Shown here: piece by piece, positions 16,199-63,869 of the stretch
Layout of the letters: each line of letters begins with the position of its first letter
How positions within the stretch are numbered: position 1 is the first letter of the stretch
Program-made: the position numbers and the translations under genes
Assembly (NCBI GenBank): GCA_973895155.1
Contig: OZ316897.1
Location: forward strand, 20,091,224-20,155,223
Source of the DNA: Marsupella aquatica
Lineage: Eukaryota > Plantae > Marchantiophyta
Length of the DNA stretch: 64,000 nt
Reading direction: 5' to 3'
Notes under the pieces: generated by a model
Databases searched by the model: none
Told to the model about the DNA's origin: nothing
The model's input: the letters and a program-made list of their open reading frames with translations, nothing else

Positions 16199-17729
16199 CT
16201 ATACCGCCAATGGAAGACTTTTCAAAGTCAAAACCTCCAATGTCAGCCCCGGACCAAATCCAATCACGAATCCATAGTCCGAACCTTCCCCGCTGTTCTT
16301 GCTACCATTCTCGATTGAACGTTGTCTAATTCTGTCGAGGACGAACAGAACGGTTGCGCTCGACATGTTTCCATAATCGGAGAGAGTATCTCGGCTTCCT
16401 CCCATCTTCGTCTTCTCCAGACCAAGCTTAGCCTCCACTTGGTCGAGAATAGCGGGACCTCCTGGGTGCACAGCCCAGAACATCTCGTTCCACTCTGGTG
16501 ACCCAACCGCTTTTCTTGCTTCCACCAGAAACTTCTCAATATTCTTGGAGATGAGACCGGGAACATCCTTCAACAGGTGGAACATGAGCCCGGCTTCAGT
16601 GAGATGTCCATCAATGGCACCATCGCTCTCCGGGATGATGGTTTCTCCAGCCCACTTGATCTCAAAGATTGGTCTCTCAATCCCTGGCCTGGGATCAGAA
16701 CCAAGGATAATGGCTGCAGCGCCATCGCCAAACAATGCAGATCCGACCAGGCCGTCGACGTGAGTTTCGCTGGGGGCTCTGAATGTCACGCAAGTTACCT
16801 CACTGGCTATCACCAACACGCGAGCTCCCTTGTTGTTCTCGGCCAAATCCTTCCCGACGCGCAGGACTGACGCTCCTCCGTAGCAGCCGATTTGGTACAT
16901 CATCACTCTCCTCACTGTGGGGCGTAGTCCCAGCAGCCTGGCCACGGCGTGGTCTGCTCCTGGCATGTTCACCCCGCTGGTCGTGGCGAACACAACATGG
17001 GTGATTTCAGACTTCTTTCCACCCCATTCTTTGATGGCCTTCACTGCAGCCTCTTGCGCCAGCTTGGGCACCTGGGCAATGGCAATCTCTTGTCGAATGT
17101 TCAGAGATGGCTCTAGGTATGTTGGGATCGTCGGATTCGCCCGCAGACGCTCCTCAGTCATGTAGAAGTGCCTCTTCTTAATGCCGGATCGGTCACCTGA
17201 GATAGCAACTCAACGTCAGTACACTCGACAACCACAATCGCTGCTGTAGCATCATCTCGTTAAGCGCCGTGCGAAAGTATGTATATAAGACTTGTATCAC
17301 ATGTTACTTTTCATAAGTTGTTTGTTGGCCGAGTAAATATAAAAGACATGAGGAAAACAACTTCTCAAAACCCAACCCAGCGATATGCTGTCGGGATGGC
17401 AGGGTTAAGTTGTTTCTAGACTTCTTATCGATCTGCATATATGACAATTACGCTGCAAGGTCTGCGCATCCCAATCTGATATTTGCCTCGGGACCGTGAG
17501 ATGACTTACAAATGCGAGTGAACTTCTTCTTGAGCTCGGGCTTGTCATTGCTGTTGGTGATGTTGAAGAAAAATTCAGGGTACTCGTCTTGCATGTGCAC
17601 GTTGGGAGGAACAGCTGTTCCGATACCTAGCACAGCTGCTGATCCTTCTGATGGTGCATCTCTCTGAAGGTTGAAGCTGGAAGGAATGCTGAAGGCGGCC
17701 GTCTCGTCTTGGGGTACAGCGGGTGCCAT
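16199..17729 (-). CDS. CHS: Chalcone synthase-like type III polyketide synthase, copy 2 (2 exons: 17729-17510, 17196-16199; 405 aa)
   Basis: Same exon lengths as copy 1 (220 + 998 nt) and same intron position (17509-17197, GTAAGT...CTCAG). Only about 7 differences in the last 320 aa. The true start is the ATG at 17729; the ORF-track start at 17738 is a TTG. Confidence 0.95.
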
Positions 17730-17994
17730 CTCAGACAAAATGGGCGAAGCTCGTTACTCCAAAATGAAAGGAACAAGGTCGGATCGTTACTCAGCACAGT
17801 TCACAGCAACCAACCTCACAAAGAGTAGTGCCTATTCTGCTCAGTCTATCAGTGCCGAGATCGACAAAGCCTTGTGAAGATGCAGGACTAAGTCGAGGTT
17901 ACTGCTTACTCGACGCACAGGGATATCCGCCAGATCTTAGGATGATCGCCTGACACTTAGCTTTCGATTCTGCACTAGATCTCAGGAGGGAGGC

Positions 17995-31350: not shown

Positions 31351-33727
31351 TGAGCTACTTGGAAAATTTATATTTTCTTGTGTTTGTGATGTTGGATTGT
31401 GCCAATGCTTGGAATTTGTGTGACAATTGCTCAAGTTAGGCAAGGCCAAAGCAAATATGAATAGACCGTCAGTACAAGCCATGTTTGCAAACCTTCATTT
31501 GTCATAAATATATCCATACAATATTAATAGCAAAGAAGAATGTTTGCATGCAAAACATCCCATCAACATGGTTCCATTTGATAGATTAAAAGTTTTGAAT
31601 GCACAACTCATTTTTGGTTCTAGTGAGTTTTACCGTGTCACAGATTAAAATGCAATTAACATGACTTTGTCTTTCTTCTTACATGCTCATACTCATTAGT
31701 CAGAGTGCTATGTGCAACCATTTTAGCACATAAGTGATACTTTACGTCATAATCTAAAAGTAACATATTCATTCGTAATAAGAATCTACATCTTATTGAT
31801 TATAAATCATAGTGCATAGTACTCTACAAAATTTAACTCAATGTTCAATTTAAATATCCTGACCAGATAGAATGATCACGTCTGAAGACAAAATCTGGCA
31901 TTGCTTCTCTCAAGATTCATATCTTACACACTATTTTACTTCAAGTTGCAAGAACCAAATTACTGTCGTAGAATCTTAGGTAAAGCTTTAGTGAAAGGTG
32001 TCTATTAAATTTAATGCATATTCTAGGGGAATAGATTTTGCAATTGCTTACAATATCAAGAATAATATACTCTCTAAACTAATCATAAGGTGGATAGCAT
32101 TAGAGGTCTGGAATGGCCCACACCCTGAAGTAAAAACAGACATACTTCTTCACTCGTTCTCTCACCAAAAAGCACGAATCTAAAGTCATATATGGAAGTC
32201 AAAAGGCATATGCTAACTTAAGTGTAATATGCATTTGTGCAGGATTCCATCACGTATTCCATAAAATTGTACTCCGTATCCATCTTTCATACTAATTACT
32301 TGGATCACATTGTCTTTACTTAAATTAGGTAGTGAAGACTCTAGAGTAGCAATCTTTCCTTCAAGGACCAATACAGGGTGATCTACGAAAATAGATGGTC
32401 ACAGATATAGCATATGTAATGCACATTGTTTGACTAATAATATGTGCGTAATTAAGGTAAAACATTTGGATTGTGAAGGGACATGGGACGAAACACAAGC
32501 ATAATATATTTGAGAAGGGCATAATGCTTAGATGTGAAGGTTAATTCCCAAGGTTAATTATACTTTAGCATTTGTGACTAACCAATGACATTAAAATCAA
32601 GCCAGGTCCCTTTTGGACCCTACTTTGTCAAGCCTATTCATGTTTATAGAGATTAGCGCAAATATTTGTTTGTATGCAGAGGAATGTCTACGTGTCCCTA
32701 AACTCCTCATGCCCCCTTACCCCCGCCCTTTTCTACTCACAAGGGCAGCTTTAATATAAAAATTATGCTACAAGAAAATGTACAGCCTATTGGTTTACTC
32801 TAGGTCATGACTTCAATCACAAATTTCTAGTGTAGACATAGCCTTCAAAATAGCAGACAATCTATTTGAAACAAGAACACGTGTTTACTAATTTTTAGTT
32901 GCATGGATGGGTCCTCATTTCCTATCCATGCATTGTCTGCCCACTGGTCTACCCAATCATAGAAGGCCAACCTGTGGTCACTTACTACCAACTTGTACCT
33001 ACTACGCTCATTGCTTATCATTGATCAGGTCTATTCATCTTGAGCAGTCAAGCGGACCATTTTTACTGAGCCCATGAGCAATTTTTTCCAATATGTGTGC
33101 AGCCATATCAGCGCTTTTCAATTGTAAACACAAAAATCTATGCTTGCAAAAACAACCAACAGTGACGATTTTTTGTATTTGACACATGGCAAGGAAAAAC
33201 AGTTAGACATAGCAATAGTAAAAGGATTAAAAAGTTTAGTTTAAATTTTAAAATAACAATGGAATTAAAAAAATCAACCAATCTCCTTAGTACTTCATGA
33301 TCTTTCGAAATTCATGATTTCTTAATACTTGACCCCATACCAGACAAAATTTTGTCAATGTTACAGCATCTCCACCGGCTTGGCAGAATGTGACAGCTTT
33401 TGGCAAATTTTGCCAGGCCATTTGCGGGCCCAAAGATTTTAGGGGCCTCGTTCATTTAAGCCAATCCCCACCGGCACCCCCCAAAATATGGGCCCCCATT
33501 TTTGTACCAACGTTCATCCCAAGTAAAATGACCAGGAATCATCGGGTTTGCACCAGAGAAACTCTACTCATGTACACTGCAGAGAGGCGCCTAGAGATTA
33601 GTGACATTGCTTGTTCCTCTCATAGATGCTCTAACATTGACAAATTTTGTCAGGTATGGGGTTAGAACACTGCTAGATCCTTTCACAGGTTCTAGCAATG
33701 CTCTAGCAATTAATCTATTGAAGATGC

Positions 33728-35640: not shown

Positions 35641-37449
35641 CTTCAACTCACTTTCACTCTAATTTTTCCCCGAGTGCTTGCCATGATTCTTCTTTGTTGA
35701 TTATATGGGCGCAAAGTTCTTGCAACAGTGCTTTTGCACGAGGATCCTCCATTTCGAGACCCAAATGACTCAACAATATCCCTTGCTGCTATTGATCTTT
35801 TTCCCATAATTATCTGTAGCGAGGTTGATTTTGTATCCATCCAAAATGAATGCACAAATTTGCTCTTCTCTTTGTCAATGGTGGTAGGAAAGTATGGCAT
35901 GTGCGGTAGATGCAACCCTCTAGGATTCTCATGCTCGATCACCCTGAAATGCTTCCATCTTAGTTGTTTTGATCTTACACTTTCAAGGAAGGACAAAGCA
36001 ATTGACCAAATTTTCTGAATTGTGTGCTCTACCCTTCCTTGAATGCCTAGCTATGTTGTCAACAAAATACAATCTTGAATTTTTCCCTCATCTCTTGATA
36101 AACCTATCATGCATGATGCTTTCTTCAATTTTTTAATGAAAGAGCTTTTCAATGAGCATCACGTTGCTACATTTAATCAAGTATAAAAGAGTTAATTGGC
36201 AAAAATTACTTCCAAGGAAACAATGATATTTTGGAACTCAAGTGAGTTGAGTTACCACACAACCATGCCTCTTTGGGCTCTCATTTGTTATTTTTTATAT
36301 GGTCTGGTTAAATGTTGTCAACATTTCTGACACACACTGACTTGTCTCCACACAATTATTACCGATGGATCCAAGTGCTCCCAAAAACATACCTTGAGTG
36401 GGCAAGAGATTGCCACCCCTCCTGAAGGATGGAACCATGAGGTTGCCACCGATTCTTAGGCAAGCAAATGGGCATTCGCCACAGTGGCTACCTGTGCCAG
36501 ACCAATGGGCAGTCGCCACAGTGGGTAATTGCCCCAGACCTTTAAAAGTACCCTGGTTGTGCCACATCAACAAATTTTGCCATAAGCATGAACGGCAATG
36601 TTTGTTCTGCAGTGACAAGAAAACACTACTTGTTTGTTGCAATGCCAACAAATATGTTTAGAGCCTAGAATGGTAAGAACTTGAGAAAACTCAAAATTAA
36701 ATGTCCCAAATAGTAGAGAGTGGGGGCATTCCAAAAGAAAACCTCTTTCACCGTTTATTTACTTTGTTGGAGATGGGAAGATTTTGACAATATCCAACTA
36801 ATTAACAAATCACTGCTAACAAAATATTTTAAGCTGCTTATGAAATTTCAAAATAAATTTAGTGATGCAAGTTTAAGAATATTTTGATGTACATTTTTTA
36901 CTTCCAAAAAGTAACAAAATAGATGTACATTTTTGTCTTCCAAAGATTAAATAAATAAATATAATTTATTTAGTATTTAAGTATACATATATAAGAGGCT
37001 GCAAACGATTGACCAACATTGTAGTGACACTTAGCCAAACCTATATCTTTGCCAATTTGGTTGACACCTAACCAAAAGCATGTGTTACCTCTCACAAAAC
37101 TAGTTTAGTGAGTGCATTTCACCTCATATCTAAAGTAGATTTTTAGGCTTTAGTATCACTAATTTTATTTGCTTCACATTTCCCAAAAGGCCCCACATAC
37201 TCTAGTTTTCCAGCACACCGTTTTGGGAACTCCACTTTACTGCGCTAGACGGCAAAATATTTTAGAATAATAAGTTTTTGCAGCAACCTACAGTAATTAT
37301 TACAACATTATACTAGTATACAATCATGACTGCTGAACGCTGATTGCAGGGGAGAAATCAATGCAGGAAGAAGGTACGAAGATATAAAAAGAAAAAAGGT
37401 CAAGACGAAGGTGCTAAGAGCATTCCCGACTAATTCTAGATTGAGTATG

Positions 37450-37870: not shown

Positions 37871-38049
37871 ACTAAAGTATGAATGACTGTTGAGACTGGT
37901 GGAATCTAGCGAATTCTAGACACTAGAAACACTAAAAACACGCTGCTTGTATCTGCTGATCGGCAGGTCAGAAGCTACCTCTTCCAACTCAGCACGGTCG
38001 TCCAATATTCCAGCTTCTTCGCCTGCACGCTACAGCAGGCCACACACTC

Positions 38050-38268
38050 TATAAGACCCCATCTCTGATCTGCCTACCAGTTTTTCGGCGCACGGCAATC
38101 AGAGGCTGCGGGTACCATCCCCGGAAGCAGGCGCAGCAGTCGAGGGATTGAACGACGGTGGTGTTGCGAGTGTTGAGGATGTGGAGACGACGAGAAAGGG
38201 AGGGGTGGCGATTCGGACGATTTTGATTTCGGGTTCTGAAGGGGGGAGCGAGTCCTCTCGGTTGTAAG
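38050..38268 (+). promoter_or_regulatory. Putative TATA (TATAAG at 38050) and non-coding first exon of the SRA-chromo gene; 5'-UTR intron 38269-39991
   Basis: GC-rich leader ending in the donor AAG|GTGAGT at 38269; acceptor TTCTATGCAG at 39991, 13 nt before the ATG at 40005. Confidence 0.5.
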
Positions 38269-40004
38269 GTGAGTTTCGGTGCTTGTAATTTGATGGCGTG
38301 ATGTGATGAATCACTTATTGCAGGAGTGCCTTCGAGTGAAACCTTCGATTGTCTTGTATTGTGTTTGTGTGGATGTTGGTAATGTGGAACGGAACGGATA
38401 CTGTGTTGAGTTGCTTTGCTGGCTCGGAGTGGGACGATTTACCACCTACTTCGATGTGCCGGCTGAGTAAGGTTTTACAGTTTCCGCGCTACGCTAATTT
38501 GGTTGCGATTCCTGAGTACCATTCTTCTGTAAGTTGGAAAGCCTTCGTCTTTGAGAACTGTATGCGCCTTTCTTCGGGTTTTAGTGGACTCTACGGAAGG
38601 AAAATGGATTCGGCATGGATTCGACTGAACCTGATTTCGTGTTTAGACGTCAATTTCGTGTTACTCCTTGTTTTTTCTTTGGTAAGTTGCTGGGCGGCCT
38701 TCTAGTGCGTGAGGTTTACCCTTTCCCGAATGCAAATTTATGAGTTGGCGTGAACGTGCAGCTTCTCATTGATGTCCATTCACCGTAAGTAACCACATTA
38801 AGACGACTGCCACTGAACTGCCAGTGTACTCGCGAACGAAATGGAGTCGAACAAACCTCATCTTATGTCTGCCTGATTGTCAATCATCAGCCTCATATCT
38901 CGGTTGGTGAGGTTTCCGCTTTCCTGAACGCAGTTTGACGAGTCAGCCTACTTCGGTTGGTGAAGTTCACGCTCTCCTGAACGCAGTTTGACGACTTCCG
39001 GTGAACCTATGTTTCTGGGTGATGGCCGTAATCTTTGACGATTTGATGTTGACAGCTAGTGGGTAGGTTTTGCTAGTGCTCGTCTCTCCAGGCACAGTGT
39101 TTATTCAGTCGACGATTGCTGCCAGTGGAAGAGGTTCCCGCACTTTGTCCTTACCCAAGTATACCCATTTCCGTCGAAATGTTGACCAACCGAGCTGCAA
39201 GTAGTGGATACATTTCGAAAATCTTGTCTGAATGAATGGGTGATGTCAAACCGTGCCACAACGGAAACAGTATTGAAACAGGTTACGGCATGGCATACTT
39301 TCGTTCACATGTGAGTCTATGTTGTCGGCACCGAAAAAGTTCTGTATTTGCTGGATTTCTAGCTGTGTTTTTGTCGAGGATTCGCATGCTGAAACCGCTA
39401 TTAAGGATTTTGACTCGCCGATTTGAGCTTACATTCACGTTTCAGTAATCGGCGAACCTTGTGTATATGCACGTTATGCTTTCGCTCCAAATGCAGGATA
39501 ATATAGGTGGAAGATAAATATAGCAATCTTCCGACAAGGGAAAAGGTATCTTCCGTGATAAGAAATAGGCAATCGCAATTTGCAAAGACGAAAACTGCCG
39601 AGCTTGCCTTTGGCTCAATCGAATTGGGAGAATATAAACATGCATTCTACTGAGTTCGATTCCGTGTGAACTGTTGAGATTTTTTGTGCACGTTGTGTTG
39701 TGATTCTATTGTCGAGCGATCCCTACTGTGTCTCGTTTTTCACGCGCCGGCGCTATATCATACTCGGTTTCTTGTTTTCTCATGCAGCTGTATGCGGAGA
39801 CATTCTCTCATTAGACATTTATCTCGACAGTGCTGTCTGCGCTCCTTCCTGGGCGCTGGGAAACGCAGCATCAATCTCTTCTTCTGTCCGTGTTACATCT
39901 TATTTCGCGGACTCCTTTAAGTCAATGGATGTTTAATACCTTCTGTTAAGGTTGTCGACTAACGCAACTATTTACCCTGTGTTCTATGCAGTCGTCCCCG
40001 ATTG

Positions 40005-42484
40005 ATGCGCAAGAGGCTTAGCCATCATCAGACGGCGAAGAAGATGAGTCCGAAGAAGGTCGGGAAGAGAATCATGGGGACCATGAAGTCCTCTATCCTC
40101 CAATTTGGATACAGATCGCCTGTTGTCCCAGCTGGGGAAACTGATTATTCGCAACTTGTGCACAGTGCACTGAAGAAATTCGAAGAACTACAGATACAAA
40201 ATCCGAAGTTAAGCCCTTTTCAGATTTTAAAGCTGATGAGAGAGAGGTATCCGCATTTCATTGTGAACAAGGATCACAAGGAGGGGAATCTACCTGGGGT
40301 GGAAGTTGGAGATTTTTTCGGCACTAGAGCTGAGGTTTGGATCGTGGGCCTTCATCGATACACACAAGCCGGGATTGACTGGATGGAGTGTTTCAGGAAA
40401 GATGGTATCCCGACCACAAAGGCTGTTAGTATTGTAGTCTCAGGTGCATATGAAGACGATCAAGACGACGGGGAGACTCTGATTTACACTGGAGAAGGGG
40501 GCAACGATCTGCACAAGTCCAGAAAGCAGTGTGAGAATCAGAAACTGAAGGGGGGGACTGTGGCTTTGGACAACAGTAGAGTCTTACAGAATTCAATCCG
40601 TGTGATCAGGTGCCGCAAGGATGCGAGGAGTTCGACCGGGAAATTTTACTCTTATGACGGCCTCTACAAGATCGTATCCGGGATGAAGGAGAAAGGAAAG
40701 TCTGGCTTTGATGTCTTCAAGTACAAACTTGTGAGAGAGTCCGGGCAGAAACCTCTCATCTGGCCCCCTTCATCAGTTGGGTATAGTCCTAAAGGAAAGA
40801 CTATCATCAGAGAAGATCTACAAGAAGAACTTGAAGATGAGGGACCTGAAGAACCAGCTCAGTCAAGCGAGGGTGGATTGAAAGCCTTCCTTGGCCCTGC
40901 AGAGAGGCTGAAACGTCCTGTCACCAAGACTAGAGACGGAGACCATGGTAAGGGACATGGATTTCACAGGGGTCTGAAAAGGAGATGCCAGGACGATTTA
41001 AGTGGAGCTGCTGCGAAACCGGCGACCTGCCTGAGGGATGATAAGGCACATGATATTGAGAACAGAATCAAACGAAAGAAAGAGGATACGGCTGGAGCTC
41101 CAGAAGAAGCATCGATTTCCTCGGGACATGCAAAGGGATCCGATGTGGGTGTGAAAGGAAGGAATGATGATGTCGGTGAAGATGGGGACTCTGATGAGCC
41201 ACTTGTCTTCCCAAGATTGAAGCTACGTGCCAAGGAGAAGGGATCGGTTATCAAAAGAAATGTAATAGTGGATGATATTGGACGAGAACAATGTGGTGTT
41301 GGTAGCACTAGAGAGGATTTGTACATTGCAAGGCAAGAAGAGAGCATGAGAAGGGAAGTGCCGAACGCAAAGAAGAGAATACTAACTCAGCCAATTCCTG
41401 TAAGTATCCAATTTCTTGTTGAAATGATTGTTTGTTTCAAATTTGCAAACCTACCTTATATTAGAACGCTTTTTAGGCTCGAATTATGTAAACAATTGGT
41501 AAACTACTTCCAAATACCCCAATTATTGGAAACTACACCATATTTATCTTTTGTTCAGTATGTTGACAATATGGTCTGCCAAATAGAAAGACATGGATGT
41601 GTTTATGGGCACAAGTGCATTCTTGTTGTATGAGGATACATATGAACCTTATTTTGGCATCCTTGCATACACCAAAACTATGATTATGTTAGATAATAGA
41701 TTGATGGCAATGAGGAATCAGTGTTATGAATTTGAAGTGAGGACTAATAGGTCATGTGTTTCAAAAAGGTCTCTCTAATGTACCCTAAGTATGTGATCTG
41801 TTTTGTAAGATTGAATTATACAATGATGGAATATCTGAACACAAGATATAATGAATCTCAGTCAAATAAGTAAGGGGCTCTATTTGGATTTAGGCTAAAG
41901 CTCCAACCAATGATTGGACAAGATGCTCTCTTCATTGGATAGTCGCTCTTTTATGTAAGATGTAGCTGCATGATAGCAGAATTGAATTAGAGAACTTAGT
42001 TTGGACTCATAAGATTGAAAGTGTTTGGAATTTGAGCATTTGTGAGCTTAATTTGGAATGAATGTGGGATCAAATGCAGACTGAAGATGAGAAGGGAGCA
42101 GTTACAAAAATACTGCATGATATTGTGTCTAAAAGCAATGTACAAGATTGTCCAAGCAATAGAAATGATTGCAGCAATGTGAGTGAAAGTAATGGTGATC
42201 AACAATTTAAGGGAGATCTGCGAGAAAATGAAGACAGAGAATCCGATAATCGCCACCCTGAGAGGGACAAAAGTGAAATTGGTGATGATGGTGGTGAATA
42301 TGAGGTTGACCGCATACTAAAAAAGCGGTCAAGGTATGGAAGTAGCAACATTGAGGAGTATCTAGTTTTGTGGAAGGATTACTCTCGAGAAGAAGCGACA
42401 TGGGAACCAATAGAAAATCTGATTAATTGTGAAAAGGCTCTAACAGAGTTCAAGCAACGCATCCGGAGGAGGAATCCTATGTAG
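40005..42484 (+). CDS. SRA-YDG domain plus C-terminal chromodomain protein, no SET domain (exons 40005-41399, 42080-42484; ~599 aa)
   Basis: SRA domain ~40284-40748 (GNLPGVEVGDFF...GLH...AGID...SIVVSGAYEDD...YTGEGG...IRVIR...YSYDGLYKI...FKYKLVR), SUVH4/KYP-like. Phase-0 donor CCT|GTAAGT at 41400 fits phase-0 acceptor ATGCAG|ACT at 42079. Chromodomain ~42296-42454 (EYEVDRIL...EYLVLWKDY...ATWEPIENL). Confidence 0.8.
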
Positions 42485-43662
42485 GCATATCATTGCAGGA
42501 GAAACATTGGAAATGTACTCTATGATCACAAGAAAAGATGTTCATATTTTAGAAATGAACTAAGGCACAATTTTGTCAGAATTTTCCAATTATGATGTGT
42601 GAATCATTATCAGGGTATATGATTTGGGGATGAGCATGTATGCATGGGTTTTACTTTGTATGAAATTCTAAAGCTGGGCATGTAATAGGAAGCACTGTAA
42701 CTTCATTGTAAATAGGGTAGCAATGGTTGTCATGATTTTCTAATCATAAAATACGTGGATAGTTATTACTGTTTATGAATTCACAAACATGGGAAATTGA
42801 TAAGCTTAGGGCAGTAAACTGATTCACAAACTTGATTTTATAATGTTTGTCATAACTTTTCAATGATAATGTCTGGATAACCTTTGATGAAATTGTCAAG
42901 CAGAGATGATTACTTATCTCAATTGTGTATTTGTTTGTCTAAATTAATTGATCTCTTACAAGTAGTTTGATTGGTTTGTCAATGGCACCCTTTTGTTGAC
43001 CTCTGACAGAATCAACCCTCCTTCCCTCTCCACAAACTAAGTCGACCATTCACTTCTATCGTACTGCATGCTTTCCAGCTCATATTGAAAAAGAATTTAT
43101 AAAAAGCTCTAAACTGCATGGTAGGCGACCGCACATTAGTATTGTACCGACACCAGCCCCATACTTCAGCATTGCACACCTAAATCGAAACAAATGCAAA
43201 AATAGGGCTGTCAAGTTGACATAAAGGATGGGAAAGTTGATCAAAATGATTTTTTTGCCAAAAACAGGGTAGTCATTCAGAGTTACAAACTGAGAATTGT
43301 GGCCAGAGTATAACAAATTGAAGCAACACAAAGGTGGAATGTCCATGCACTGAATCAACTGTTCTTAATGTGGAATGACAAGATTGTGGGCAGAGAAATA
43401 TATAAGGTGCTAGTCCATTTTCAATATTGGTTACAAATCTCTTGGAGGCCTTTTCACTTTATTGGTTTGTTGACTATGCTTGCAAAATTCCAGAAACTTC
43501 ACTTGGTCCTTACATTTTACAATGGAAGCATATCTCAACTAGGCAGTAGCATAAAACACCTGAGCCCAATGGACCTATGACAACAAACTTTCAGTTTAAG
43601 AACTATAAAACTCAGTTCGGCCTGCATTATTGAGACTAAGAACTCTCAAACAGAAGACCTGG

Positions 43663-43900
43663 CAAATGTAAATCACCACTCACAGCTTAAAAGATTGTGT
43701 TATGCTCATAAATTATCAGCGCCCAGTTGAGTCTGTCAGTAGAAAGCTGATGGCTCGTAACTTGTTTGGTGACCTTTCTCTGCCACCATTCATTGTTACC
43801 TAACAAATGTAAATCACCACTCACAGCTTAAAAGAGCGTGCTATGCTCATAAATGGCTTTCAACTTGTCTGATGACCTTTCTCTGCCACCATTCATTGTT
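43663..43900 (+). repeat. Local tandem duplication
   Basis: CAAATGTAAATCACCACTCACAGCTTAAAAGA and TGACCTTTCTCTGCCACCATTCATTGTT each occur twice. Confidence 0.8.
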
Positions 43901-45224
43901 CACCCTGCTAGCTCTCTTGATCGAGCAATTTATAACTTGAATAAGGTTACATGTGTGTTTTCTCATAGTCTGCAAATGATCTCCAAATGTTGCTTTAGCT
44001 CCCCTTTAGAATGATCTAACACGCCCCAAAAACATTTGTAAGAGGGATCATGCTAGTGCTCCAACTTTTGGATCTAGACTGTGCCAAAGGGCCAAACTCA
44101 AGGCACACCAGTTTATTAGAATGACTCGAGCCAAAACAATGCATGAACATAATCTGAGGTGGATGCAATGTACTTTTGCAAAGGTAATAATGCTAGCACA
44201 TATGAAACTACAGGGCACTAGCAAAGAGGTGAGATCTCAAAGTTTGAAGTTGGCCTATAATTCAAATCTGATCAAAATTTGTTTGTGAAGGTAGAAGTGC
44301 AAACCTAGATTTAGCTGCATTCATCGTGAGCTATCTAGACTGGTCTTATCTTGCAATTTTTTACCATCAAATTGATTGTGAGGTTTACTAGGAGGATTCA
44401 CTTACTATATTCTTTTAGGGTATTATGTGCAACACTGGTTGGGAAGAAACCCCTAAGACAAAATCTTGGATTGAAATTGCAACGATTTGGAGTAATTTGA
44501 AATCATGAAAGATTTGGGTCATTTGTGTGAGGGGGGCTACCCAACATGAGTATCTCATTTTCAAAATTATTTTGAATATTAGGGAGTCAGAGGATCCAAA
44601 TGGCCAAACTATGTCAACAGTAGAGCTCTGCATGTGCTGGTATTGGAGGGTCCAAGATCAAGTTCCATCTCATTCCATCTTCAATTCTTCCAATCATCAA
44701 TAAATTGTTAGTAGGAGTTTACAATCACGAACATTCCTCTAACAGAAAGAAATAATAATTTAGAGATAATATTGAAACTATACAAGATTCAGGTCATTTA
44801 CATTAGTAATGTGGCATTGATCCGGGTTGATTTAACATTCAAATGAGTTAATTTAAACCCAAAACAAGACAAACTTAAACTTCTCGCTGTCAAACTCAAC
44901 CCTATTTAATCATGACAAATCTTAACCTTGAAATTTGTTTAGAAACAAATCCAAAAAAAAATTCAAACTATTTTTGTTTAGGGTTTAAATCAATTCAGTT
45001 CATTTGGAATAATGAGTTGCTTGTCCAAGTACTAACTCATGAGCCAATTAGAGCTTCTTGATTTCATGATCATGGCAAAATGTATTCCTGGCAGCCACAG
45101 ACAAAGCATAGGACTCCCTCATAAACACTGTCACACCAGCCCTCATATGGTAGTCTTTTCTTGTTGCTTTGAGAAATTCCCCTGAATTACATGAAGAGAA
45201 AGGGCACAGACCATAGGCTACTCC

Positions 45225-45519: not shown

Positions 45520-47005
45520 TACAATTAATCCGTGGACCCCCATGTTCATCCAAGGAATGTGTGTGATAAAGTGAAATCAATTTTTTACAAGGCGGTAACC
45601 GATGGTTTTGAGTCTCTCAGTGATCTTGGTGTGTGCTCATACCAAAGAGAACGCTCGAAAAGATAGAGGAGATCGATCTGGTTGAGATGATCTCTTTGGT
45701 TCATCAAACCAAAGGTTGAATGTGGAGGAAGTTTTTGGACGATTTTTGCTCACATATTGGAGAAATCGTGTTTCTACCATTCCTCATTGATTGTGTGTGA
45801 GTTATGTTGAGCATTACTTTTACAAGACAAACCGGAGAAAATCACTTAGCTATTGGCGAAAGGATGCTTGTCATTTCGGTGGGAAGAACGTACAAAATGG
45901 ACAAGCCATCACTTCACATACAGGTTTTGTAGTTTTTTTAATTTAAGAAAGCTATTGTGTGAGGGGGAGACCAACAATTGTTTCTTTGACATCAGCCTGT
46001 GTTCAGAGTGTGCTTCGTTGAAGCTTGGAGGGATGTGAACAATTCAAGTCGGGAAAAGCGTTGTGGACAAGCGATGACAACGTAATCAAAGAAATCAATT
46101 TGCAGTGGCTAAGTTTGTGAGGGTGACGGGATTGTGATGTCTCTTAATAGGGAAAGGGTTTCCAATGAGCCTCAGATTGACAATTTTTGTCAAATTCCAA
46201 ATGAGTTTCTGAATATCTTTGTCTTTCCAATGAGTGTGACAATAAGAAATTTTGATCATGAGTTTATGAATTCTTTTAGTTTTTCAACATTGAGTCCGGC
46301 ATTGACAAATTTTATGTCAGATTCTGTCATGGTACTAAAGAGATCATGAGGTTTTCAATGTCTCTAGCTTTCTAATGTGTGACATTAGAAGTATTAGTCA
46401 AGAATTGGAGAGATCATGAGTATCCAAAGTTCTCTAACTTTCCAATGAACTTAACATTGATAGATTTTGTCAAGTACTAAGGAGATTATGAGTTTCTAAT
46501 TTTGCTCTAGCTTAGTTTCCAATGAGTGTGACATTGAGAGATTTTATCAAGACTGAAGAGGTCTGAGTTTCTAAATTTTGATCTTGAGCTTTCTGATGAA
46601 TCAAACAATGGCAGATTTTATCAAGCACTAAGGAGATTGATTATTTTTACAATGTGGAGCCAAAAGGGTTCTAACTATGTACATTTTTATGTATTAGTTT
46701 TTAAAAACTTGCAAACAATCATAAAATACAAACATTTTGATGTAAAACACTGATATATCATTGACAAACATTAGAATCGTAACTTTATATTACTAAATGA
46801 CATCTCTTCCTTTCTATTCTGTTTTTTTTTATGTTCAATATTTATGGCATGGCGCTCCAAAAATTATGTTTCTTTTGCCACAAACAGGAATGTGCCCTTT
46901 TGTTACTGTCATAATTAAGATATTTCCTGTTTGTGACTGGTTGTGCTGATGTGGCATAACCTCGTGACAGGGAATTTGCAAGGGACCTCTCATGGGGGTC
47001 CGTAA
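45520..47005. mobile_element. Non-autonomous TIR element, same family as 10452-11620, with a ~70-bp tandem array at 46160-46640
   Basis: Ends CCGTGGACCCCCATG...CATGGGGGTCCGTA; array units such as ATTGATAGATTTTGTCAAGTACTAAGGAGATTATGAG. Confidence 0.55.
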
Positions 47006-49047: not shown

Positions 49048-52000
49048 TCACATGGGTAGAAAGCCATGCTTCAGTGCAGCTTTCCACGTGATATCAATGC
49101 GGTCCACATCAATAGCTCCAACTTCATTATGTTTCCATCCTTCTAAAGCATGTACAAGGCCACCAGCATGACAGGCGTGCACACAACCTCTTGGCATTGT
49201 CATCTGCATCATCACATGAAAGCAGCAATTAGGAAGTTGCTTGAAAGCATACACAGGGATTAAAAAAAGAAAACCTTCAAATCCACAACCGACTAAGATA
49301 GTGCTTATATTATTATCTCTACTAATCAAGAGAGGCGCCCGCGTACCAAAAATTGCTTTATTGTAAGAAAGCAATGAGAAAGACTTGTCAAAGGTGTTTT
49401 AACATTTCTCCAGGCATCTGGGCATCTAAACACTTAGAATTAATGCAAGATGTGGACAAAGTCGTCAATACCTCACAGCTGCGCAAACCTTTCACGGTTT
49501 TTGGTAATCTCATGCCTGCCAGCTCTCCATAAGTGCAGTCCTTCCGGAGTTCCGCGATTGGAGGAACCACAAATTGATGGAAGTGGGTGCCAGCAGGTGC
49601 CCACTTTTGATGTTCAGCGAATGCCCATTTGCCCATCACCCATGTCTATCACAACCAAGTTCAGACGTCAAAGTTTGTGACACCAGGTGTCAAGAAGGGA
49701 AAAACCGTACCCTCCCCGCTAGTCTAAAGTTTGGCATGAAGATCGCAGCGAGTAAATTATTGATGTTAGCAAATGTGATACCAAACACTGATGACATTTA
49801 TCAACGAGATTGATAGCATAGCCTAAGAGTATAAATTTGCCTTGGCCAAGTTTTGCGCGGGAGTTCCCAAATATAAGAAGGACCAAGTTTCCCGAGAGTT
49901 CAACAACATGCAACTATACAACGGTTTAAGAAACAGCTGAAGCAAGAGTCTCCTCCTCCTACCTTGCAATCCTTCCCATCTTGGTATTTCGTGACTTGCA
50001 CGAGATATCTTTGGAATTCCACAGGAGCCTCATGTAGGATTGTCTCAAACCTCTCCCTTGAAGTAGTCAACATCTGTAACATCCCACGCGGAAATTCATT
50101 CCCAAAAGCGTCAATCCAAAAACATGAAAAAGTCCGTTATCTTTACGTCCCAATCTACTTGCATTTCAGTAGTTAACCATCTTCAGTTGGATGCCTGTGC
50201 CCCCATCATGAACCATATATTGCATACCAATCACTGGCAGCAATGTGTTTCATGCAAAAGTTTGTGTGTTACACGGCATAGGTTTTCGGTTAAATTGTCT
50301 CCTGGTTACTCTGAGAACAAGAGCGTTGCAGATGGAAAAAACTCTTTGACCATTAACAATGCACAATTCCCATCGACGAATTGAAAAGGGAAGGAGTACA
50401 TACCAAGACGCGTACTCGCCGCCTGCACAGATAGAGCGCAATAGCTCGGCCAAGTTTGGACGTCGCACCAGTGAGAAATATTTCAGAAACATCCCTGGGA
50501 AGTTTGTCCAATATCACAGCCGCTGTAAGTGTGTTTCCATGTACTATCCGGATCCTCAGATTGGGATGCTTTTTGACAAAGAGCGCCCCACCTCCATTCA
50601 GGTCTTCATTCTGCACATATACAACCGTGACAAAAGACTATAAGCTACGTTTCCATCCGTCCCGTCTCCTTTAGTTCTAAAATACAATGGCAAACAAGTT
50701 AAAACTTAAAAAGCACAGCCTTCAAATCCTAATCCCTGGGATCCCTATGTCTAAGAGAACCGAGTATCCAGTGGAAACAAAATGAAAAATGAGAGGAAAT
50801 GAATCCGTGAATTAATTTGAATCCAATAAAGCCAGAGAGTGAACAATTTACAGTGCAGAAATAGACCTTATTAAGTGCCCCAAGACTAATCACTTGGGCG
50901 CCCTTTGCGTCTGCTTTCAAAATTGATTCCTCGATCAGTTTGTTGATCCGCGGCTTCTCGAACTTCAAAAAATACTGGCATCCAAAAGTTTTTTGATGTC
51001 CAAAGATGAGACAATGTTCAATCTTGGTCAAGTGCAATTTATACAAGTTACTAATTACTGTACTCCTGAGAAGAACACAAGTCAACTAAAGTCAATACTG
51101 CCGTAAACAAATGAGGGCAGATTAGTAAAAGTTAGCTAATAACGAGGATACATTGGAGAAAGCAAATTACTGACCTGAAAGCCATATCTGGGCATAACCC
51201 AAGTTTGCATGCTCAACTTGTCAAGCTTGTACTTATCAGCAGTAAAGGGCTTTCCGAATATCCAGAGCACAACCATGGCTATTACAGCAAGTGGCCACAG
51301 AGGCAATAGATACCAGTGTGATTGAAATGGGTGGGCAGCAAGAGAAGCAATCCCAAAGGGTAAATGGAAAGTCGACAGAAGTTCCGTTCCATGAGCGAGG
51401 AAGACGAAGTCCAAGTTCTCAGTTCTACCTGCAAGACACAATTAAAAGTCAGGATGCTTGCGAGTGCACTCAATGAAAGGCACAGGATGCAGTTGCAGCA
51501 ATCAATGAAATGGTCGCCTTATGCTACCTAAGGCCTTTACATTTTCCACAACCAGCCAGTAAAAGTAGCAAAGTATTGCACCTTCGACAAAACATACAGG
51601 CAATTTGTCACAAGTAACCATCCTGACAAAGAGGCCAAGGATTCCTACTCTGACCTCCTCCACGATCTGTAATCTATGAACGATCAACAACGTGGTCATT
51701 CTGCAAAACGAAGTGAATGCCAAAGGGGAAAATAGCAATACGTGTGTGGCAGCAAAGAAAACAGACCTTTCCGGACGGTTTGGTAGAGAGTGTCGCTGTT
51801 TTTGTCCACAGTGCCACCCAGATAATCGTAAAGGGGCATAAACAAGGCGAAATTCGTGTGAACCTGCGAGTGATGGAGGGAATGATACCTGGTCCAAAGA
51901 AACCAGAACTGCCCACTCAGTACAGCCTTGAGCCAATTTGATAGTATGCTCCAACAAAACGAAATCCTAAGCGACCTCTCGTAAACAACCAAGTTTTCGG

Positions 52001-54834
52001 TCAAGACCCTCCTTCTAGTCGATACACAAGTAAGTCACTTACGTAGGAGTGTAGACGAGATATTTCAGAGGCGGGAAGATGTTGAAAACCCAGGGTGGGA
52101 AAAACTCCCAATTGCAATGGCCGATGGCATTCATGAAGTCAAAAAACAGCCAGTAAAAGTAAAACATTCCGATGGAGCCACCTCCGAGAGCCCAAGTACC
52201 TAAAAGTGGTATGGCAAACACTGCAGAATACGAGACATGCTCAAGAAACGGATGAACTGTCCCTGCACCACATAGAAGCCAGCCAGGTGATATCAGTCAC
52301 AGGACTACTCTTGAACCAATTTAAAAGTGCAAGAAGAGGAAATGACAACTCCAAATTTGATATCCCTCAAACTTTTATTTATGACGAGATGCTGGTCTAT
52401 CCAAACCATCAGAGTACAAGTGGCCCACTAACCAGAGACGGGCTCGGTGACAAAAGAAGCATGGTGGTGGGAGTGGTAGCGAGTGAACAAGTAATGGTGG
52501 TGCAGCGCACGATGCAGCCAATAGTACGCAAATTCGGTAGGCCCGGCATGAAGAAGCAACATAATGACGATGCCCTTTGAATCCCATAAGGGAAAGTTGT
52601 TAAAACCAGGAAGATAGGCGTGGATAACTGTAGCAAGGATCACGTGGAATAGCAAATAGTCCTCCCTGCACAACGGAAGCGACCCATAATAGTAAGACCA
52701 AAAACGGATCGTTCGAAGGTACTTCACGTCAATGAAAATGAAGGGAGTTCATTTCCGATATAGGAAACACACTGGGTCTTAAATAGAATGACTGGAAGTC
52801 ATCTGCAACGGTCGGTTGACACAGGAATCTCCATCTCATCCAAATCTTAGTAGAGGGAGTCATACCAGGTCTTTTCTCGATCTACTTGCTGGAAATTTAT
52901 AGGTTTTTGTTGAATCTGATATTTCTCGATAACGAAATGGAAGCGAGACAGAGACATCCACAATTGGCCGTGTAGATAGCGCAAGGCTGTGGCCACAAGC
53001 ATGTGAAGGCACCAGTTGTCCCTGTCATAGCCACCGAATACGTTGGCTTGCGTTGCTTTGACGATGAAAGGTACGTACAGAACATACTGCAACCAACATG
53101 GATTACGTTAGATCTCCTGCCGAGTACAAAATAATTCATGACTGCCAGCCCAAACGAGCGTTGATATGAGTATGAAAGGTACGTACAGAACATGCTGCAG
53201 TCAACGCGGGCTATGTACGAACTCATGCTGATTCAGAAATTAATTCATGATTGTCATTCCAGAACGGAAAGGAGCGTATCAATCAACCCATAGGTAAGGC
53301 GTTTTGGATTGTCGTCTAGGCAGAATCGTGACACGTTTTCTCACCAGGCCACCCGAAGGATTCCAAACTCTTGAAAATGAACCGTCAGCCAATTTCGCAG
53401 ATGTTACCAATAAACTTTTCCAACAGAAAAATCGAGCCAGTAAAACGAAACGTCTTCCGAAATTGTACACTGCTGTAACTAAGGGGGTGGCTGGGACCCA
53501 TAAACCTCAGCGTCTTCTAACGCTGCCCCCGGACAGCTTTGATGAAAATACAGAGTCAAGAGGTCGAGCACTGCTTCGACACATTGACGATGATCTGGAG
53601 TTCTGGACAGATGTACATTACTCTCTACTCCATGAATCCGTACACTTCAGGAAACTTTTCGTGCTATATGTTTTATTGGCTGAGGACTAGTCAACTCCAC
53701 TATTCAACGAGACGTGAAATTCTGATATCTTCGAAGGTGACGTCAGATGGCGCCATGGTAATACTGTAGTGAAGTGGGTAGTTCGCCTTGCCAAACCAAT
53801 GGCAGGCAGAAACTCGGAAAATTCCATTTCTGTTGACAATTGCAGGTAATTCACATGAAGTTCAAGTACCACAACCGTGCGAAATTCGTTCTAGTTTCTT
53901 CTTCCTATTATTTAATGTTTGTGCAGACGCAGTAGCGAACACTTCAAAATTTCTCTGTCCGGAACCAAAGCAGACAAAGGCCGATCAAACTCTCCCCAGA
54001 ATACATAATTTCCAAAGGAACAAAAATCAAGAAACGAATTGCAGCCATTTCGATACTAAATTAGAGGATATATAAGGTAACATGGCAGGACTTAATAAGT
54101 CAATTGAAGCTACTTCAAAATTTTCTAAACAGGGCTTTAAATGCAGACATCGACCATCGACTTCAAAGTGCAGAAAAACGAGTTAAAGTGGATGGAATTG
54201 GGGAATCGACGGTGCATTTCACTGGCCGCAGCAGGGGCCATGGCACATACTAGAAGAGACAAGAGACTAGAAGCAAATTTCCCATGTTATCGCAGACTGA
54301 CGCAGAAAAACGAAAGCAGCAACGCCAAAATGGAGTCAACCCGATTCCATTTTCGTGCCATTTTACTCCTGGACCAGGCCACCAGTCCCCGACGGAGACT
54401 ACCAAGCGCATGACCGGCCCAAGTCGTGAAGAAACGGGTGAAGGGGGAAGAGAAACAGACAGAAAAAATAGAGAGAGTGATATTTAATTCCAAACGGGGG
54501 CAAAGGGTATGGCCACGATGGCAGGATGTTGAGAAAATCAAAACAATGTTGCCAATTGAAGCACCTGGGACAACAAGCAGAATGGACACTGGTTTGGGGT
54601 TTATCAGCTCCCGGCCAGTAAGCGAGTCAGTGAACTCCATTCAGTTCAGCATTGCTCATAGACAATCTTCACCACGGAATTCAACATTGCTGCAGCTGTA
54701 CTACTCCATTGCAGGACCCCACAAAAAAATTCACACTCTCCTCCCATACGAATGTCACAGAACCACACACTCACCTTGAAACTCCCGAGCCGCGACCACG
54801 GCCAGTCATACAACGGACCCGGCTGAGACGCCAT
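49048..54834 (-). CDS. CER1/3: CER1/CER3 (ECERIFERUM, WAX2/GL1) family very-long-chain alkane biosynthesis protein, 11 exons, 621 aa
   Basis: Exons 54834-54775, 53086-52866, 52665-52433, 52262-52043, 51888-51767, 51428-51175, 50974-50867, 50610-50404, 50073-49963, 49645-49472, 49203-49048; all GT-AG and phase-compatible (1866 nt). His boxes HRALH, HSHHH, HSLHH; C-terminal Wax2 domain with [17 protein letters not shown] and VHACHAGG. Confidence 0.95.
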
Positions 54835-59714: not shown

Positions 59715-62700
59715 TTAAGGGCCTTCATCTTCACTGTCACTTAGATCAAGAGTGTTCACTCTTTTTCTCTTCCGAGAACTTCTGTCTCCTATTGAGACTA
59801 ATTGTCCGTCAGCTCCACGGTTCTTGACATCATCGTCACTGTCTTCTAAATCTTCAAAGTTGTCGCCTCTCAAGGTGTTCCTCTCTCCTGTTTGTTCGAG
59901 GACTGGGGTTCCTGCATGGCTTGGTGCTGAGCTTGTTAATCTACTACTGAGAACATCGCCCTCGTTGTCTCCTAAACCGTCACTATCCTCTAAGTCAACA
60001 GTGTTTGTTCTTCCCCTGGGAAAATCATTTTCCACTGGGTCCCCACTAGTGCTTCCACCCTGGCCTGGGGCGGGTGCTGCTGACCTTATCAGGCGAGTAA
60101 GAGGGGCATCATCATCATCACTGGCCAACAATTCCACAGATTCAGTCCTTCTTTTCCTTGAACGTCTACCTTCTTCTCTGGCTGTACTCGCAAGTCCTTC
60201 GTGACGCGATGAAGGTCCACTAAACCCACCTTTAAGGGCATTTCCATCCTCCGCTAGCTCCCCACTGGTGGTTCCACCCTGGCCTAAAGCTCGTGCTGAT
60301 CTTCCCAGGCGAATAAGAGGGGCATCATCTTCCTCATCATCACTGTCCAACAATTCCACGGATTCAGTCGTTCTTTCCCTTGAACGTCTACCTTCTGCTG
60401 TACTCGCAAGGCCTCCTTGACCTGATGAAGGCCCACTAAACCCACCTCCAAGGGTATCTTCATCGTCACTGTTCGGTAGGTCGTCCGTATTTATTCGCCT
60501 CTTCATTCCAGGTTTCTTTCCACTTCTATCTACACTCTTGTATCCTTCCTCCCGACAGGACAAGTAATTGACACCAATGGGTAGGTTGTCGTCATCATGT
60601 TCACTATCAGTAAGGTTGGCATGGAAAGAAGAAGGAGCAGTTCTGGGCTTGGGTTTGACCAAACCGAGTGTGCGTAATCTCCGTGACACCTGAGCAGTTG
60701 TGAATTCTCCACCCATATTCTCGGTGATGACTTTGGTGACGTTCTTGCCACTCCCATGCCTGCATACCAGCAAAGAAAAACCTGTATGAAGGACATTCTA
60801 CGCAACAACAACCACTATCTAAGAGTGAGTGGTTGCTCAACCAGGCTCAACGGATTTCTTGATGCAAGACGGACAAGCGGAAATTAGAAATCAATTACTC
60901 TTTGGACCTTTCGAACAGCTCTCTAAGAGCTTCATCGTGAGGTTGGGAGAATAAGCTTGACTTCTTTCTGGCTCCACTGCCATCCGAGGTTCTCCTACTC
61001 TTCTGGTTCCGACTGGGAGACTGGGAACCTAGACTGCTTCCACCCTTCTTGTATTTATCTCCTCCACTCCCAACTTTCTTTTTTGATCTGTTGGTAGAGT
61101 GCTCCACGAGACCTAAGCTTCGCAGCTTTCGCTGAACCTGAGCTGCAGTATACTTCTCGAACGGGTCCAACTCTGACGCAATGAGTTGTGCATACTGCTC
61201 ATCATCCTTGAACCTGAACACCCGAAATCATCATATGGGCAATTCAACTCAGATACGATCAGAACCATAACTATCGCTACTCTTAACTTCATCCACAACA
61301 CAGAAATGGGACCCTAGGTCTTGGCGTCTGCGGAATTCGGCCTCATTACCGTGAACTCTGCAAAGGAACGTAAACGAACTATCACCTGAAGTTTTGCCAC
61401 GGCTTTGAGAAAATAAAATGTGCTCTCACAAACTGCAGGCTAGTGGACCTAAACGTACTTTACGACTATGAACAAGAATCTGTGCCATTCAGATGACGGC
61501 AGAAATAGCCATCGTCGCTGCCAGCTGCCAAACGCCTGCTGAACTAATTCTAAAATTTACACAGCATTAAAGGAGCACTTCAGAAGTTTAGAGTAGAATT
61601 TGAATGTGGACTTCGGCCAAGCTCGAATCATCCTCAGACACCAGAATGTCACGATCGCTTTACCTTCCAAACAATTCCTTGATCTGCACCACATGATCTT
61701 CAGATAACGGAATGACGGCTTCTGCATCTTCATCCTCACTTGATGAGGCAGACCTTCAAAAGTAGCACGGAAAACAATTGTGTTTACTACTTGGAGCCTC
61801 TTCAGTCTCGTACCACTGTAACCAAGACTCTCCCAGTAGAAATCGTTGCTTTGAGTTCCAATTGAACTCATTCAGTTTGTTTCCTTAAGGCATGCTTCAG
61901 AGAGAATTCCATTCTGAGTGCATAACATCTCCTACCTAATATGATCCAATGTGCACAGTACGTCCAGCCGTAACCTTTCAAATGAAAAACAGAGCGACGT
62001 CAGTGAAAGACTGGCAAACTCTAAATTCAACTTACTCGTCATTATCACTGTGCCGGTTTGTCGGTGCGTCTTCTTCATCGTCACCCAAAGCATCTGCAAT
62101 GTTAATTTTTTTCCTGTTTTGAGAGGACCCACCTGCCTCTTTCCGCATGGAGTGTATCATATAATCAGCAGTAATGTGGTGACATTCTGACCGTGTCTTC
62201 CAGAACAGAATGTCTACAAACAAAATTGGGTGCGCCTCCAGCTTCTTGAAGAGCCGGCGTACCACTTTGCTGACAAAACCAATGACATATCTGTGATCCT
62301 GTGCTGATTGCAGCTGCTCATTGGAGAGAATACCGTAGAATGTCTGGAGAATCGAGATCTGCAGAGGCAACATGCTTGTTTTACGTCATGTGTACTATTA
62401 TCCCGCACAATAAGTTATAGTTTGACTATTTTGATACTATGGCTTAATTGCCTCGAAAAAATATCGAAACAACAATATGACTGTTTATACAATTTTGTGC
62501 TACAGATAAAATCAAGTTTTCCACTAGCAGTGTGTACGTATAATAAGAAACAATCTACAGGCTGAGAAATAATTTCAATACCTTCCTCGGCTCCTGAGGA
62601 AAAACTTTGAATGATAATCATCAGCAGAAACCGACCAAAAACGTACTATGAATAAAGGGGCTGATTAGTAGTTGGGACCTGATACAGCATGGGCTCGAGA

Positions 62701-63869
62701 TGGCAGTCTTCACAGATGCGTTGCAGCATGCGCACAATGTAGTGGTTGGTTGCAGCCCTGTTGGTTGAGTGGAACTTCAAAAGCCAACAGTAGTTTTTAA
62801 CAACGAAGTTGTTTGCAAACTTATCCACAACTTTTCGGATGTTTAAGGTCACCTCCTTCGTCCTATTCTGCTTCCCGCCATCTGAATCATCACCGTCGTC
62901 ATCAGCAGCTGCAGCAGCAGCATCGACTGGAGTATGAATTGTTTCATCTTCTTCGTCCTGCTGCTGAGAGCCAGCGGCACTTTTTATTGGCAGATCCATC
63001 TCAGACTGGTCACCCGTATGTTCATCACTGTCTGCCACATATTCTGCGATTCCTTCCTCAGCTAACCTCTCTGGCTCTACATTTGAATGTTGAGATATTA
63101 TATCAGCGCGCTTGGGGGAATGGGGAATATCTGCGTCACTTTTCGAGGCTTGCTCATCTGCTTTAGCCTCCGTGGCATCCTCTTCTGCTCCTTCGGGTTG
63201 GGATTGTTCAGAGGGCTTTGGTTTCTTTTTCCAACCTCCTCTTACTTTGGTCAAAACCTAAAAAGAAAATCACAGCTCAATTCATCTAATAGTCATCATA
63301 AGGTCAGCTGATGATATATTTGTGGAAAATTCTAACGAAAATAAATCTAGGGGCACTTTAATGCAGAACAGCCCAAAGAAGTGGCGCAAAAATCAGCCAA
63401 GATTAATACTAGAATAGATTAGAGAATTGCTCTGAAGAGTGGCTTACCCGAAGAGACTCCCCGGACTTGGCGAAACTATCAAGGATGCGGAGGACGATGT
63501 GCGTGATCTCCACTAGATCGGCCAAGTGACTGCAATCAGTCATCACCAGCTCATAATTTGCTTCTCTGAAAACAACTCTACCTCATATGGGACTCGAAGC
63601 TTAAGTCTGTCCATGAGCTAAGTGTCTTTAACAAGACGGTCGTGCCCTCGCTTTTGGATCACAAACCAGACTTAAAGTTCAGGACTATACCTCCGGGGGT
63701 GCTTGGAGGTGTCAAACGACCTGATCAGCGAATTCAGGAAGTCGAGAACGTCAAAGTCAGACTGGTTGTAGAAAATTTGATATAGTAGGGTGCGTGCCGT
63801 GCGACGTTCCTGCTGCCCTTCTCTTGTGAGACTGCCCGACCTTTTAAGGACAAGATCCAGCATTTTTAT
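59715..63869 (-). CDS. TIMELESS: TIMELESS/Tof1 homolog, 3' part (5' exons lie beyond the window end)
   Basis: Exons 63869-63691, 63529-63448, 63257-62679, 62358-62036, 61753-61664, 61213-60908, 60759-59715. Motifs MLDLVLK...LLYQIFYNQSD...IRSFDT, CWLLKF...TNHYIVRMLQRICED..LEPMLYQ, PILFVDILFWKTR and FKDD...IASELD...QVQRKLRSLGL match plant TIMELESS. Confidence 0.9.

Follow-up and report, generated by a model that had tools for sequence, protein, structure and literature searches.

Gene layout at the locus

The window, that is the whole stretch of 64,000 nucleotides analysed, carries on its forward strand two open reading frames in which Pfam identified a complete SAD_SRA domain (40005-41399) and a complete Chromo domain (42080-42481). 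A GTAAGT donor at 41400 and a TGCAG acceptor ending at 42079, both in phase 0, join them into a predicted spliced product of 599 aa that is free of stops apart from the terminal one (Table 1). The preliminary description of this DNA had proposed this in-frame junction and the sequence is consistent with it; the branch-like CTTAAT motif mentioned there was located at 42047-42052, and composition bore out the charged linker between the SRA domain and the intron. The GC content of the intron is 34%, as against 48% in exon 1 and 41% in exon 2, and the alternative unspliced read-through, which ends at 41633, resembles the intron in composition (33% GC). The predicted acceptor at 42079 is without a pyrimidine tract (T+C 0.30). 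A strong acceptor at 39991 (CTAAC...TGCAG), absent from the earlier list of features, points to a further 5' exon, either UTR or short coding. The homologous proteins of Calypogeia fissa carry ~20 additional N-terminal residues relative to the window protein, and no upstream coding exon resembling their N-terminus was found in the window (best local score 22).

Table 1. Features of the SRA-chromodomain gene (positions in the window)
Feature	Position	Strand	Evidence
3' end of upstream intron: CTAAC branch point and TGCAG acceptor	39959..39991	+	sequence
Coding exon 1: basic N-terminus, two helices, SRA, charged linker; 465 aa	40005..41399	+	Pfam, frame; 54-56% identity to P0001/P0002 over 95% of length
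Two predicted helices before SRA (aa 48-65, 71-81)	40146..40247	+	AlphaFold, Foldseek
SRA-YDG domain	40284..40748	+	Pfam, PDB alignment, substitution counts
Charged, likely disordered linker; short blocks kept in C. fissa	40749..41399	+	alignment, composition
Predicted GT-AG phase-0 intron, 680 nt, 34% GC	41400..42079	+	splice motifs, composition, homology break
Coding exon 2: acidic linker, chromodomain, basic tail, stop	42080..42484	+	Pfam, frame; divergent copy keeps frame and stop
Classical chromodomain, cage Y539/W563/Y566	42299..42460	+	Pfam, PDB matches, substitution counts

Pfam detected no pre-SET, SET or post-SET domain in either exon. When 12 SET-bearing SUVH proteins were compared with the whole window by tblastn, they matched the SRA only, apart from one chance match (E 0.04), indicating that a SET exon is absent from the 21 kb downstream. 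The C. fissa homologues likewise lack SET, and the earlier remark that no pre-SET/SET sequence is visible thus holds over the 64-kb window. PHD, RING, UBL and Tudor domains were detected by Pfam neither in the two exons nor in the C. fissa models; enoyl-CoA hydratase-like, ankyrin and Agenet domains were absent from both exons by the same analysis, and Chromo_shadow gave no Pfam match, leaving a single chromodomain at the C-terminus.

The neighbours in the window are ordinary plant genes, namely a chalcone-synthase-like pair and a CER1-like gene. The former are near-identical chalcone/stilbene-synthase-like (type III PKS) genes at 5956-6969 (+) and 16202-17209 / 17451-17753 (-); lying in opposite orientation ~9 kb apart, the pair is, judged from its sequence, a recent inverted duplication. 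CER1-like exons occupy 49051-52034 (-), with a CER1-like_C match above the cut-off and an FA_hydroxylase match below it. Two long acidic ORFs at 59718-60797 and 62649-63257 (-) have no Pfam match, and one motif there is presumably reminiscent of a TIMELESS-type C-terminus. A degenerate repeat family with ~70-77 nt spacing was seen at 46158-46638. Related sequences lie around 33270-33650 and 36138-36194, the copies being dispersed, both direct and inverted.

Two putative reader domains conserved between liverworts and under selection

The SRA match spans aa 94-248 of exon 1 (E 7.5e-47) and covers positions 3-148 of the 148-position profile, in agreement with the complete SRA-YDG domain claimed earlier. 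Among PDB sequences its best match was SUVH9 (126.8 bits, vs 113.9 for SUVH4); SUVH9, SUVH4, SUVH5 and SUVH6 together scored 105-127 bits whereas UHRF1 scored 58-63. The AlphaFold model reached a pLDDT of 85, with 86-97 for the part comprising the helices before the SRA, and Foldseek aligned 221 columns to KYP (4qep) with an rmsd of 2.0 Å; superposition on the KYP-DNA complex takes in both leading helices. Pfam, PDB matches, AlphaFold and Foldseek concur in an SRA-YDG of the plant SUVH type with helices ahead, and from the model we infer that these two helices correspond to the SUVH two-helix bundle. In an alignment with 3q0b, mapped by hand, window residues Q121/G123/G147/Y149/D151/Y161/E164 correspond to SUVH5 Q392/G394/G414/Y416/D418/Y428/Q431, the SUVH5 thumb, stacking and pocket residues being those named in PMC4740795. 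The 5mC-pocket set is kept, i.e. thumb Q121, stacking Y149 and Y161, and acidic D151 facing the Watson-Crick edge. The C. fissa copies differ around the pocket, where window G147, A148, D152 and E164 are replaced by E, V, N and A; DNA reading may therefore differ or be weaker there, and these four pocket-adjacent differences count against a uniform function.

The Chromo match spans aa 74-127 of exon 2 (E 1e-16) and covers the profile from position 1 to 53 of 53. The preliminary description had noted a chromodomain with all three cage positions, and we found them in Y539/W563/Y566 (numbering of the joined protein), equivalent to HP1 Y24/W45/Y48 as given in PMC3350952. They are also kept in C. 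fissa and in a divergent copy described below. The residue preceding the third cage position is D in the window and G in C. fissa and in CDY-type domains. The PDB matches were CDY/CDYL (46.9 bits), Clr4 (41), HP1/Rhino (37), LHP1 (31) and ZMET2 (29), and a second PDB comparison ranked the relatives similarly; the fold model, of low confidence (pLDDT 61), shows three strands and a helix. With CDY/CDYL, Clr4 and HP1 types as best matches, preference for K9 or K27 is inseparable at the level of sequence.

The two best matches of exon 1 are the C. fissa proteins P0001 (CAM6128145.1, 733 aa) and P0002 (CAM6108729.1, 709 aa), which are 56% and 54% identical to it across 95% of its length, linker included. 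Both are known as gene models, with precomputed PF02182 and PF00385 and no SET. Homology runs through the linker, ends at the donor and restarts in exon 2, the domain order being the same, and the C. fissa sequences cluster with that of the window in a single clade, both in the SRA tree (100/99) and in the chromodomain tree (100/91). On the strength of this homology the window DNA probably comes from a leafy liverwort. The SET-less SRA plus chromodomain layout described from the window alone therefore recurs in two annotated C. fissa gene models. By eye, a block of ~70 residues occurs twice in the C. fissa linker, most clearly in P0002, and once in the window protein.

Searching 1.84 billion representatives by HMMER with a full-length profile gave 8883 matches, of which the best 150 (at least 121 bits) were used, a cut too high for SRA-chromodomain proteins whose SRA is of a remote type, as in UHRF1 or fungi. 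The 168 relatives collected comprised 105 SRA+SET proteins, 52 with an SRA and neither SET nor chromodomain (many of them likely fragments), 9 with a chromodomain only and 2 with SRA and chromodomain, both from C. fissa; Pfam run on 35 of the 168 agreed with these classes. Other arrangements seen were Tudor(PTM_DIR17)+SRA+SET (P0148), double SRA without SET (P0028, P0032) and double SRA with SET (P0139). A search of the chromodomain region returned only P0001 and P0002 among 7 candidates. Comparing exon 2 with longer proteins gave none among 146 candidates, a search that is insensitive as it also missed P0001 and P0002, and the Atlas yielded no clusters beyond generic YDG (0.81, no more than a lead) and generic chromodomain ones. 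Literature searches, which mostly lay outside subscription journals and supplementary architecture tables where the layout could appear, surfaced no description of it, consistent with the earlier statement that no described enzyme-less plant SRA-chromodomain architecture was known to its author. The words SRA, SUVH, YDG and chromodomain are absent from the main text of PMC11982613, and PMC3417536 and PMC2864245 yielded no mention of the fusion or of chromoviruses in liverworts. The layout is real, conserved and apparently undescribed, and built from well-known parts. Its known range, comprising the window genome, one related organism and C. fissa, is narrow, which limits its general impact.

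The related organism, represented by runs X3 and X4, provided a divergent copy that is ~10% different in upstream non-coding DNA. Over window positions 38000-44000 it harbors both a window-identical copy and this divergent one, a pattern that would fit a hybrid or an allopolyploid. None of the contigs spans the intron in joined form, which has no bearing on expression. A contig over 39951-40777 showed 14 differences, 10 synonymous and 4 nonsynonymous; within the SRA there were 9 synonymous and 1 nonsynonymous (binomial p 1e-5 against neutral). This contig is possibly a mosaic of two alleles, so that rates are not comparable between the domains while the synonymous excess is unaffected. Over 42190-42511 a second contig showed 21 differences: 9 synonymous and 2 nonsynonymous in the chromodomain (dN/dS ~0.06, p 2e-5), and 2 synonymous and 5 nonsynonymous in the stretch of linker immediately preceding it; the remaining 3, in the tail, are nonsynonymous. 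No change affects the branch motif, acceptor or stop, and the reading frame survives a deletion of 18 nt. The synonymous excess in both domains indicates purifying selection rather than the neutral rates that the preliminary description had named as a possible refutation, and neither domain is a dead remnant; for the chromodomain, dN/dS of ~0.06 rules out a dead retroelement remnant.

Ancestry of the SRA and of the chromodomain

SRA trees were built with FastTree from 159 domains and with IQ-TREE from 58 chosen rows. The SET-less neighbours in these trees were the SRA-only proteins P0004 and P0022 of C. fissa, P0035 of Riccia sorocarpa, Mp5g15000 (P0039) of Marchantia, and Logan proteins. Grouping with liverwort SRA-only proteins reached 0.947 in FastTree and, in IQ-TREE, 81/80 with and 88/91 without Marchantia, a moderate support with the bootstrap not fully settled. 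The KYP group (99/98), whose rows were picked by motif and after the first tree, two of them being checked by name, excludes the window protein, and a forced join was rejected (p-AU 0.025). One gymnosperm protein automatically named SUVH4 fell outside the KYP group and apart from the window protein too. The SUVH4/KYP-like character assigned earlier to this SRA was not supported, given the KYP clade, the p-AU value and SUVH9 as best PDB match; the domain phylogeny proposed there as a check placed the SRA, with moderate support, among liverwort SRA-only proteins and lent no support to a KYP ancestry. P0039, P0035, P0004 and P0021-P0024 make up a short, SET-less, apparently unstudied liverwort group, in which five C. 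fissa members share one 90% cluster; no paper on Mp5g15000 surfaced in literature searches. As the SRA falls, with moderate support, among SET-less SRA-only proteins, the simplest history is that a gene already devoid of SET acquired a chromodomain exon, and the fusion likely arose in this way within an older liverwort SRA-only family.

The donor of that exon may have been a retroelement. A scan of metagenome contigs with the query's own motifs yielded 43 chromodomain loci, none of which encodes an SRA; an integrase C-terminal motif lies at most 330 nt upstream in 28 of the 43, and 15 of the 22 ORFs run through Pfam (39 were extracted) matched SH3_Tf2-1 or other pol domains. In a tree of 59 columns without land-plant LHP1 or CMT rows, the fusion chromodomains grouped with one integrase-borne family (93/52) within a mostly integrase set (97/85), the wider set holding two cellular rows. 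The P0002 chromodomain scored 54.7, 51.0 and 50.2 bits against integrase-borne domains vs 45.5 against cellular ones, whereas the window chromodomain tied (integrase-borne 43.9, cellular 42.8; CDYL 46.9). Given that the loci were picked by the query's own motifs and that retroelements are abundant, derivation from a Ty3/gypsy chromovirus integrase is suggestive only. A chromovirus donor is plausible since caged chromoviruses are confined to non-seed plants according to PMC6317226 and the MAGGY chromodomain binds H3K9me2/3 according to PMC3350952. In the proposed event, one gene of an older liverwort SRA-only family would thus have acquired a last exon encoding the chromodomain, a chromovirus integrase being its possible source. 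The fuller scenario, in which leafy liverworts captured the heterochromatin-targeting chromodomain of an integrase onto an SRA-only protein and obtained a single-chain, enzyme-less 5mC and H3K9me AND-gate, a transposon-silencing reader convergent with UHRF1 and HP1 and made in part of the transposon's means of targeting, we put forward as a doubtful, tentative one.

The gene itself is not carried by a transposon, a candidate that we rejected. No LTR or terminal inverted repeats flank it, and Pfam detected no SET, RT or integrase families among the 72 window ORFs scanned (of 86 of at least 95 aa, leaving out 14 overlapping alternative or antisense frames and the gene's own ORFs).

Predicted function and relation to known systems

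We favour, as somewhat better than an even prospect, an enzyme-less bivalent reader of 5mC and H3K9me (or K27me), and the protein probably acts as an adaptor for chromatin in which both silencing marks are present. The SRA would flip 5mC into its pocket while thumb Q121 fills the gap as in SUVH5, and the chromodomain cage would hold a methyl-lysine of the H3 tail (K9, possibly K27). With a charged linker of ~290 residues between them, the two domains would have linker DNA and an adjacent nucleosome within reach, making binding strongest where both marks coincide. Having bound, the protein may compact or stabilise chromatin, or recruit partners via the conserved linker blocks. Doubly marked targets in Marchantia would be transposons with 5mC and H3K9me1/H3K27me1. 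Classical cages usually favour di- or tri-methyl lysine, which, set against the mono-methyl marks tied to Marchantia 5mC, is a point against this reading. According to bioRxiv 10.1101/827881, Marchantia DNA methylation in all contexts is associated most strongly with H3K9me1 and H3K27me1 and occurs on transposons and repeats.

The two exons may never be joined, in which case predictors would have merged an SRA-only gene, reading through to 41633, with a separate chromodomain gene (ATG 42062) or a retroelement remnant. The weak pyrimidine tract at the acceptor, in-frame ATGs at 42062 and 42074, and SRA-only relatives that terminate shortly after the SRA would fit this arrangement; it is nevertheless very improbable, given the same order and a homologous linker flanking the intron in C. 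fissa at ~45% protein divergence, the intron-like composition of the read-through, a dN/dS of ~0.06 that rules out a dead remnant, and the absence of integrase and reverse-transcriptase traces from the window. If the exons are joined, the same dual reader could have the opposite output, competing with the KYP-CMT loop or recruiting activators and thereby shielding transposon-adjacent genes as an anti-silencing or boundary factor. SUVH1 and SUVH3 are SRA-based anti-silencers in Arabidopsis. The absence of a catalytic domain would suit such a role, as would the highly expressed Marchantia genes flanked by H3K9me1/H3K27me1 transposons (bioRxiv 10.1101/827881). We regard it as unlikely, however, since neither an activation domain nor a partner was identified and, among solved chromodomains, the nearest are those of repressive readers.

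Alternatively, H3K27me3 or a methylated partner other than a histone might be what the chromodomain reads, which would tie DNA methylation to Polycomb-type silencing of transposons instead of to H3K9me. Its top PDB matches are CDY/CDYL (46.9 bits), whose chromodomains bind K9 and K27 motifs alike. Moreover, ~60% of Marchantia H3K27me3 peaks lie on repeats and transposons (bioRxiv 10.1101/827881), and plant LHP1 reads H3K27me3 (PMC6318295). LHP1 (31 bits) and Polycomb/CBX domains, however, score below Clr4 and HP1 types, and bioRxiv 10.1101/827881 places Marchantia H3K27me3 peaks largely apart from DNA methylation, so that we hold H3K27me3 reading to be distinctly unlikely, less probable again than an anti-silencing output.

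The bivalent 5mC and H3K9me reader would bear on how the two marks are coupled. In flowering plants this is done by two separate enzymes, each reading the other's mark; if our reading is true, one enzyme-less chain with both readers is a third way. Transposon chromatin is known to differ in the liverwort lineage, combining 5mC with H3K9me1/H3K27me1, plus much H3K27me3, and with Mp5g15000 of the model Marchantia in the SET-less SRA family, fused and unfused forms are directly comparable. If the chromodomain is retrotransposon-derived, the host would have recruited for its own defence a module that a transposon used for targeting. Such a minimal reader of two marks could also be put to use as a heterochromatin coincidence probe.

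Among known systems, the probable nearest SRA relatives are the liverwort SRA-only proteins Mp5g15000, R1sor_019855 and CAM6087518.1, which are SET-less and have the N-terminal helices and motif in common with the window protein but stop just after the SRA (216-364 aa), with neither linker nor chromodomain. Tcn1-like group I chromovirus chromodomains share the full cage and a motif before the cage Trp; unlike them, the window chromodomain has no integrase, RT or LTR nearby and belongs to an exon of host type on which purifying selection acts. The KYP-CMT loop divides its reading between an SRA for 5mC and a chromodomain for H3K9me2, as outlined in PMC7617993. The window protein unites these two reading halves of KYP/SUVH4 and CMT3/ZMET2 in a single chain, yet it lacks both writer domains, its SRA lies outside the KYP clade and its chromodomain is far from ZMET2 (29 bits). 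SUVH2 and SUVH9, the latter the best PDB match of the window SRA, are non-catalytic SRA adaptors, described in PMC7617993 as enzyme-dead proteins recruiting Pol V via DMS3; they keep pre-SET/SET folds and have no chromodomain, and the window SRA falls outside the SUVH9-like rows. UHRF1/Np95 and VIM/ORTH likewise combine an SRA 5mC reader with histone-reader modules in one chain, whereas the window protein is without UBL, Tudor, PHD and RING and hence not an E3 ligase, its reader being a classical chromodomain and its SRA of plant SUVH type. Like the window protein, HP1, CDYL and MPP8 have a chromodomain with a classical cage attached to a long charged linker, and their plant functional equivalent, ADCP1, is an enzyme-less H3K9me reader in Arabidopsis (PMC6318295). 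Unlike these four, the window protein has its own 5mC reader and is devoid, by Pfam, of chromo-shadow, enoyl-CoA hydratase-like, ankyrin and Agenet domains, and its order is not that of HP1/LHP1, with an N-terminal chromodomain and a C-terminal chromo-shadow. By analogy, it would resemble a minimal UHRF1 or an HP1/ADCP1 and yet belong to none of these families.
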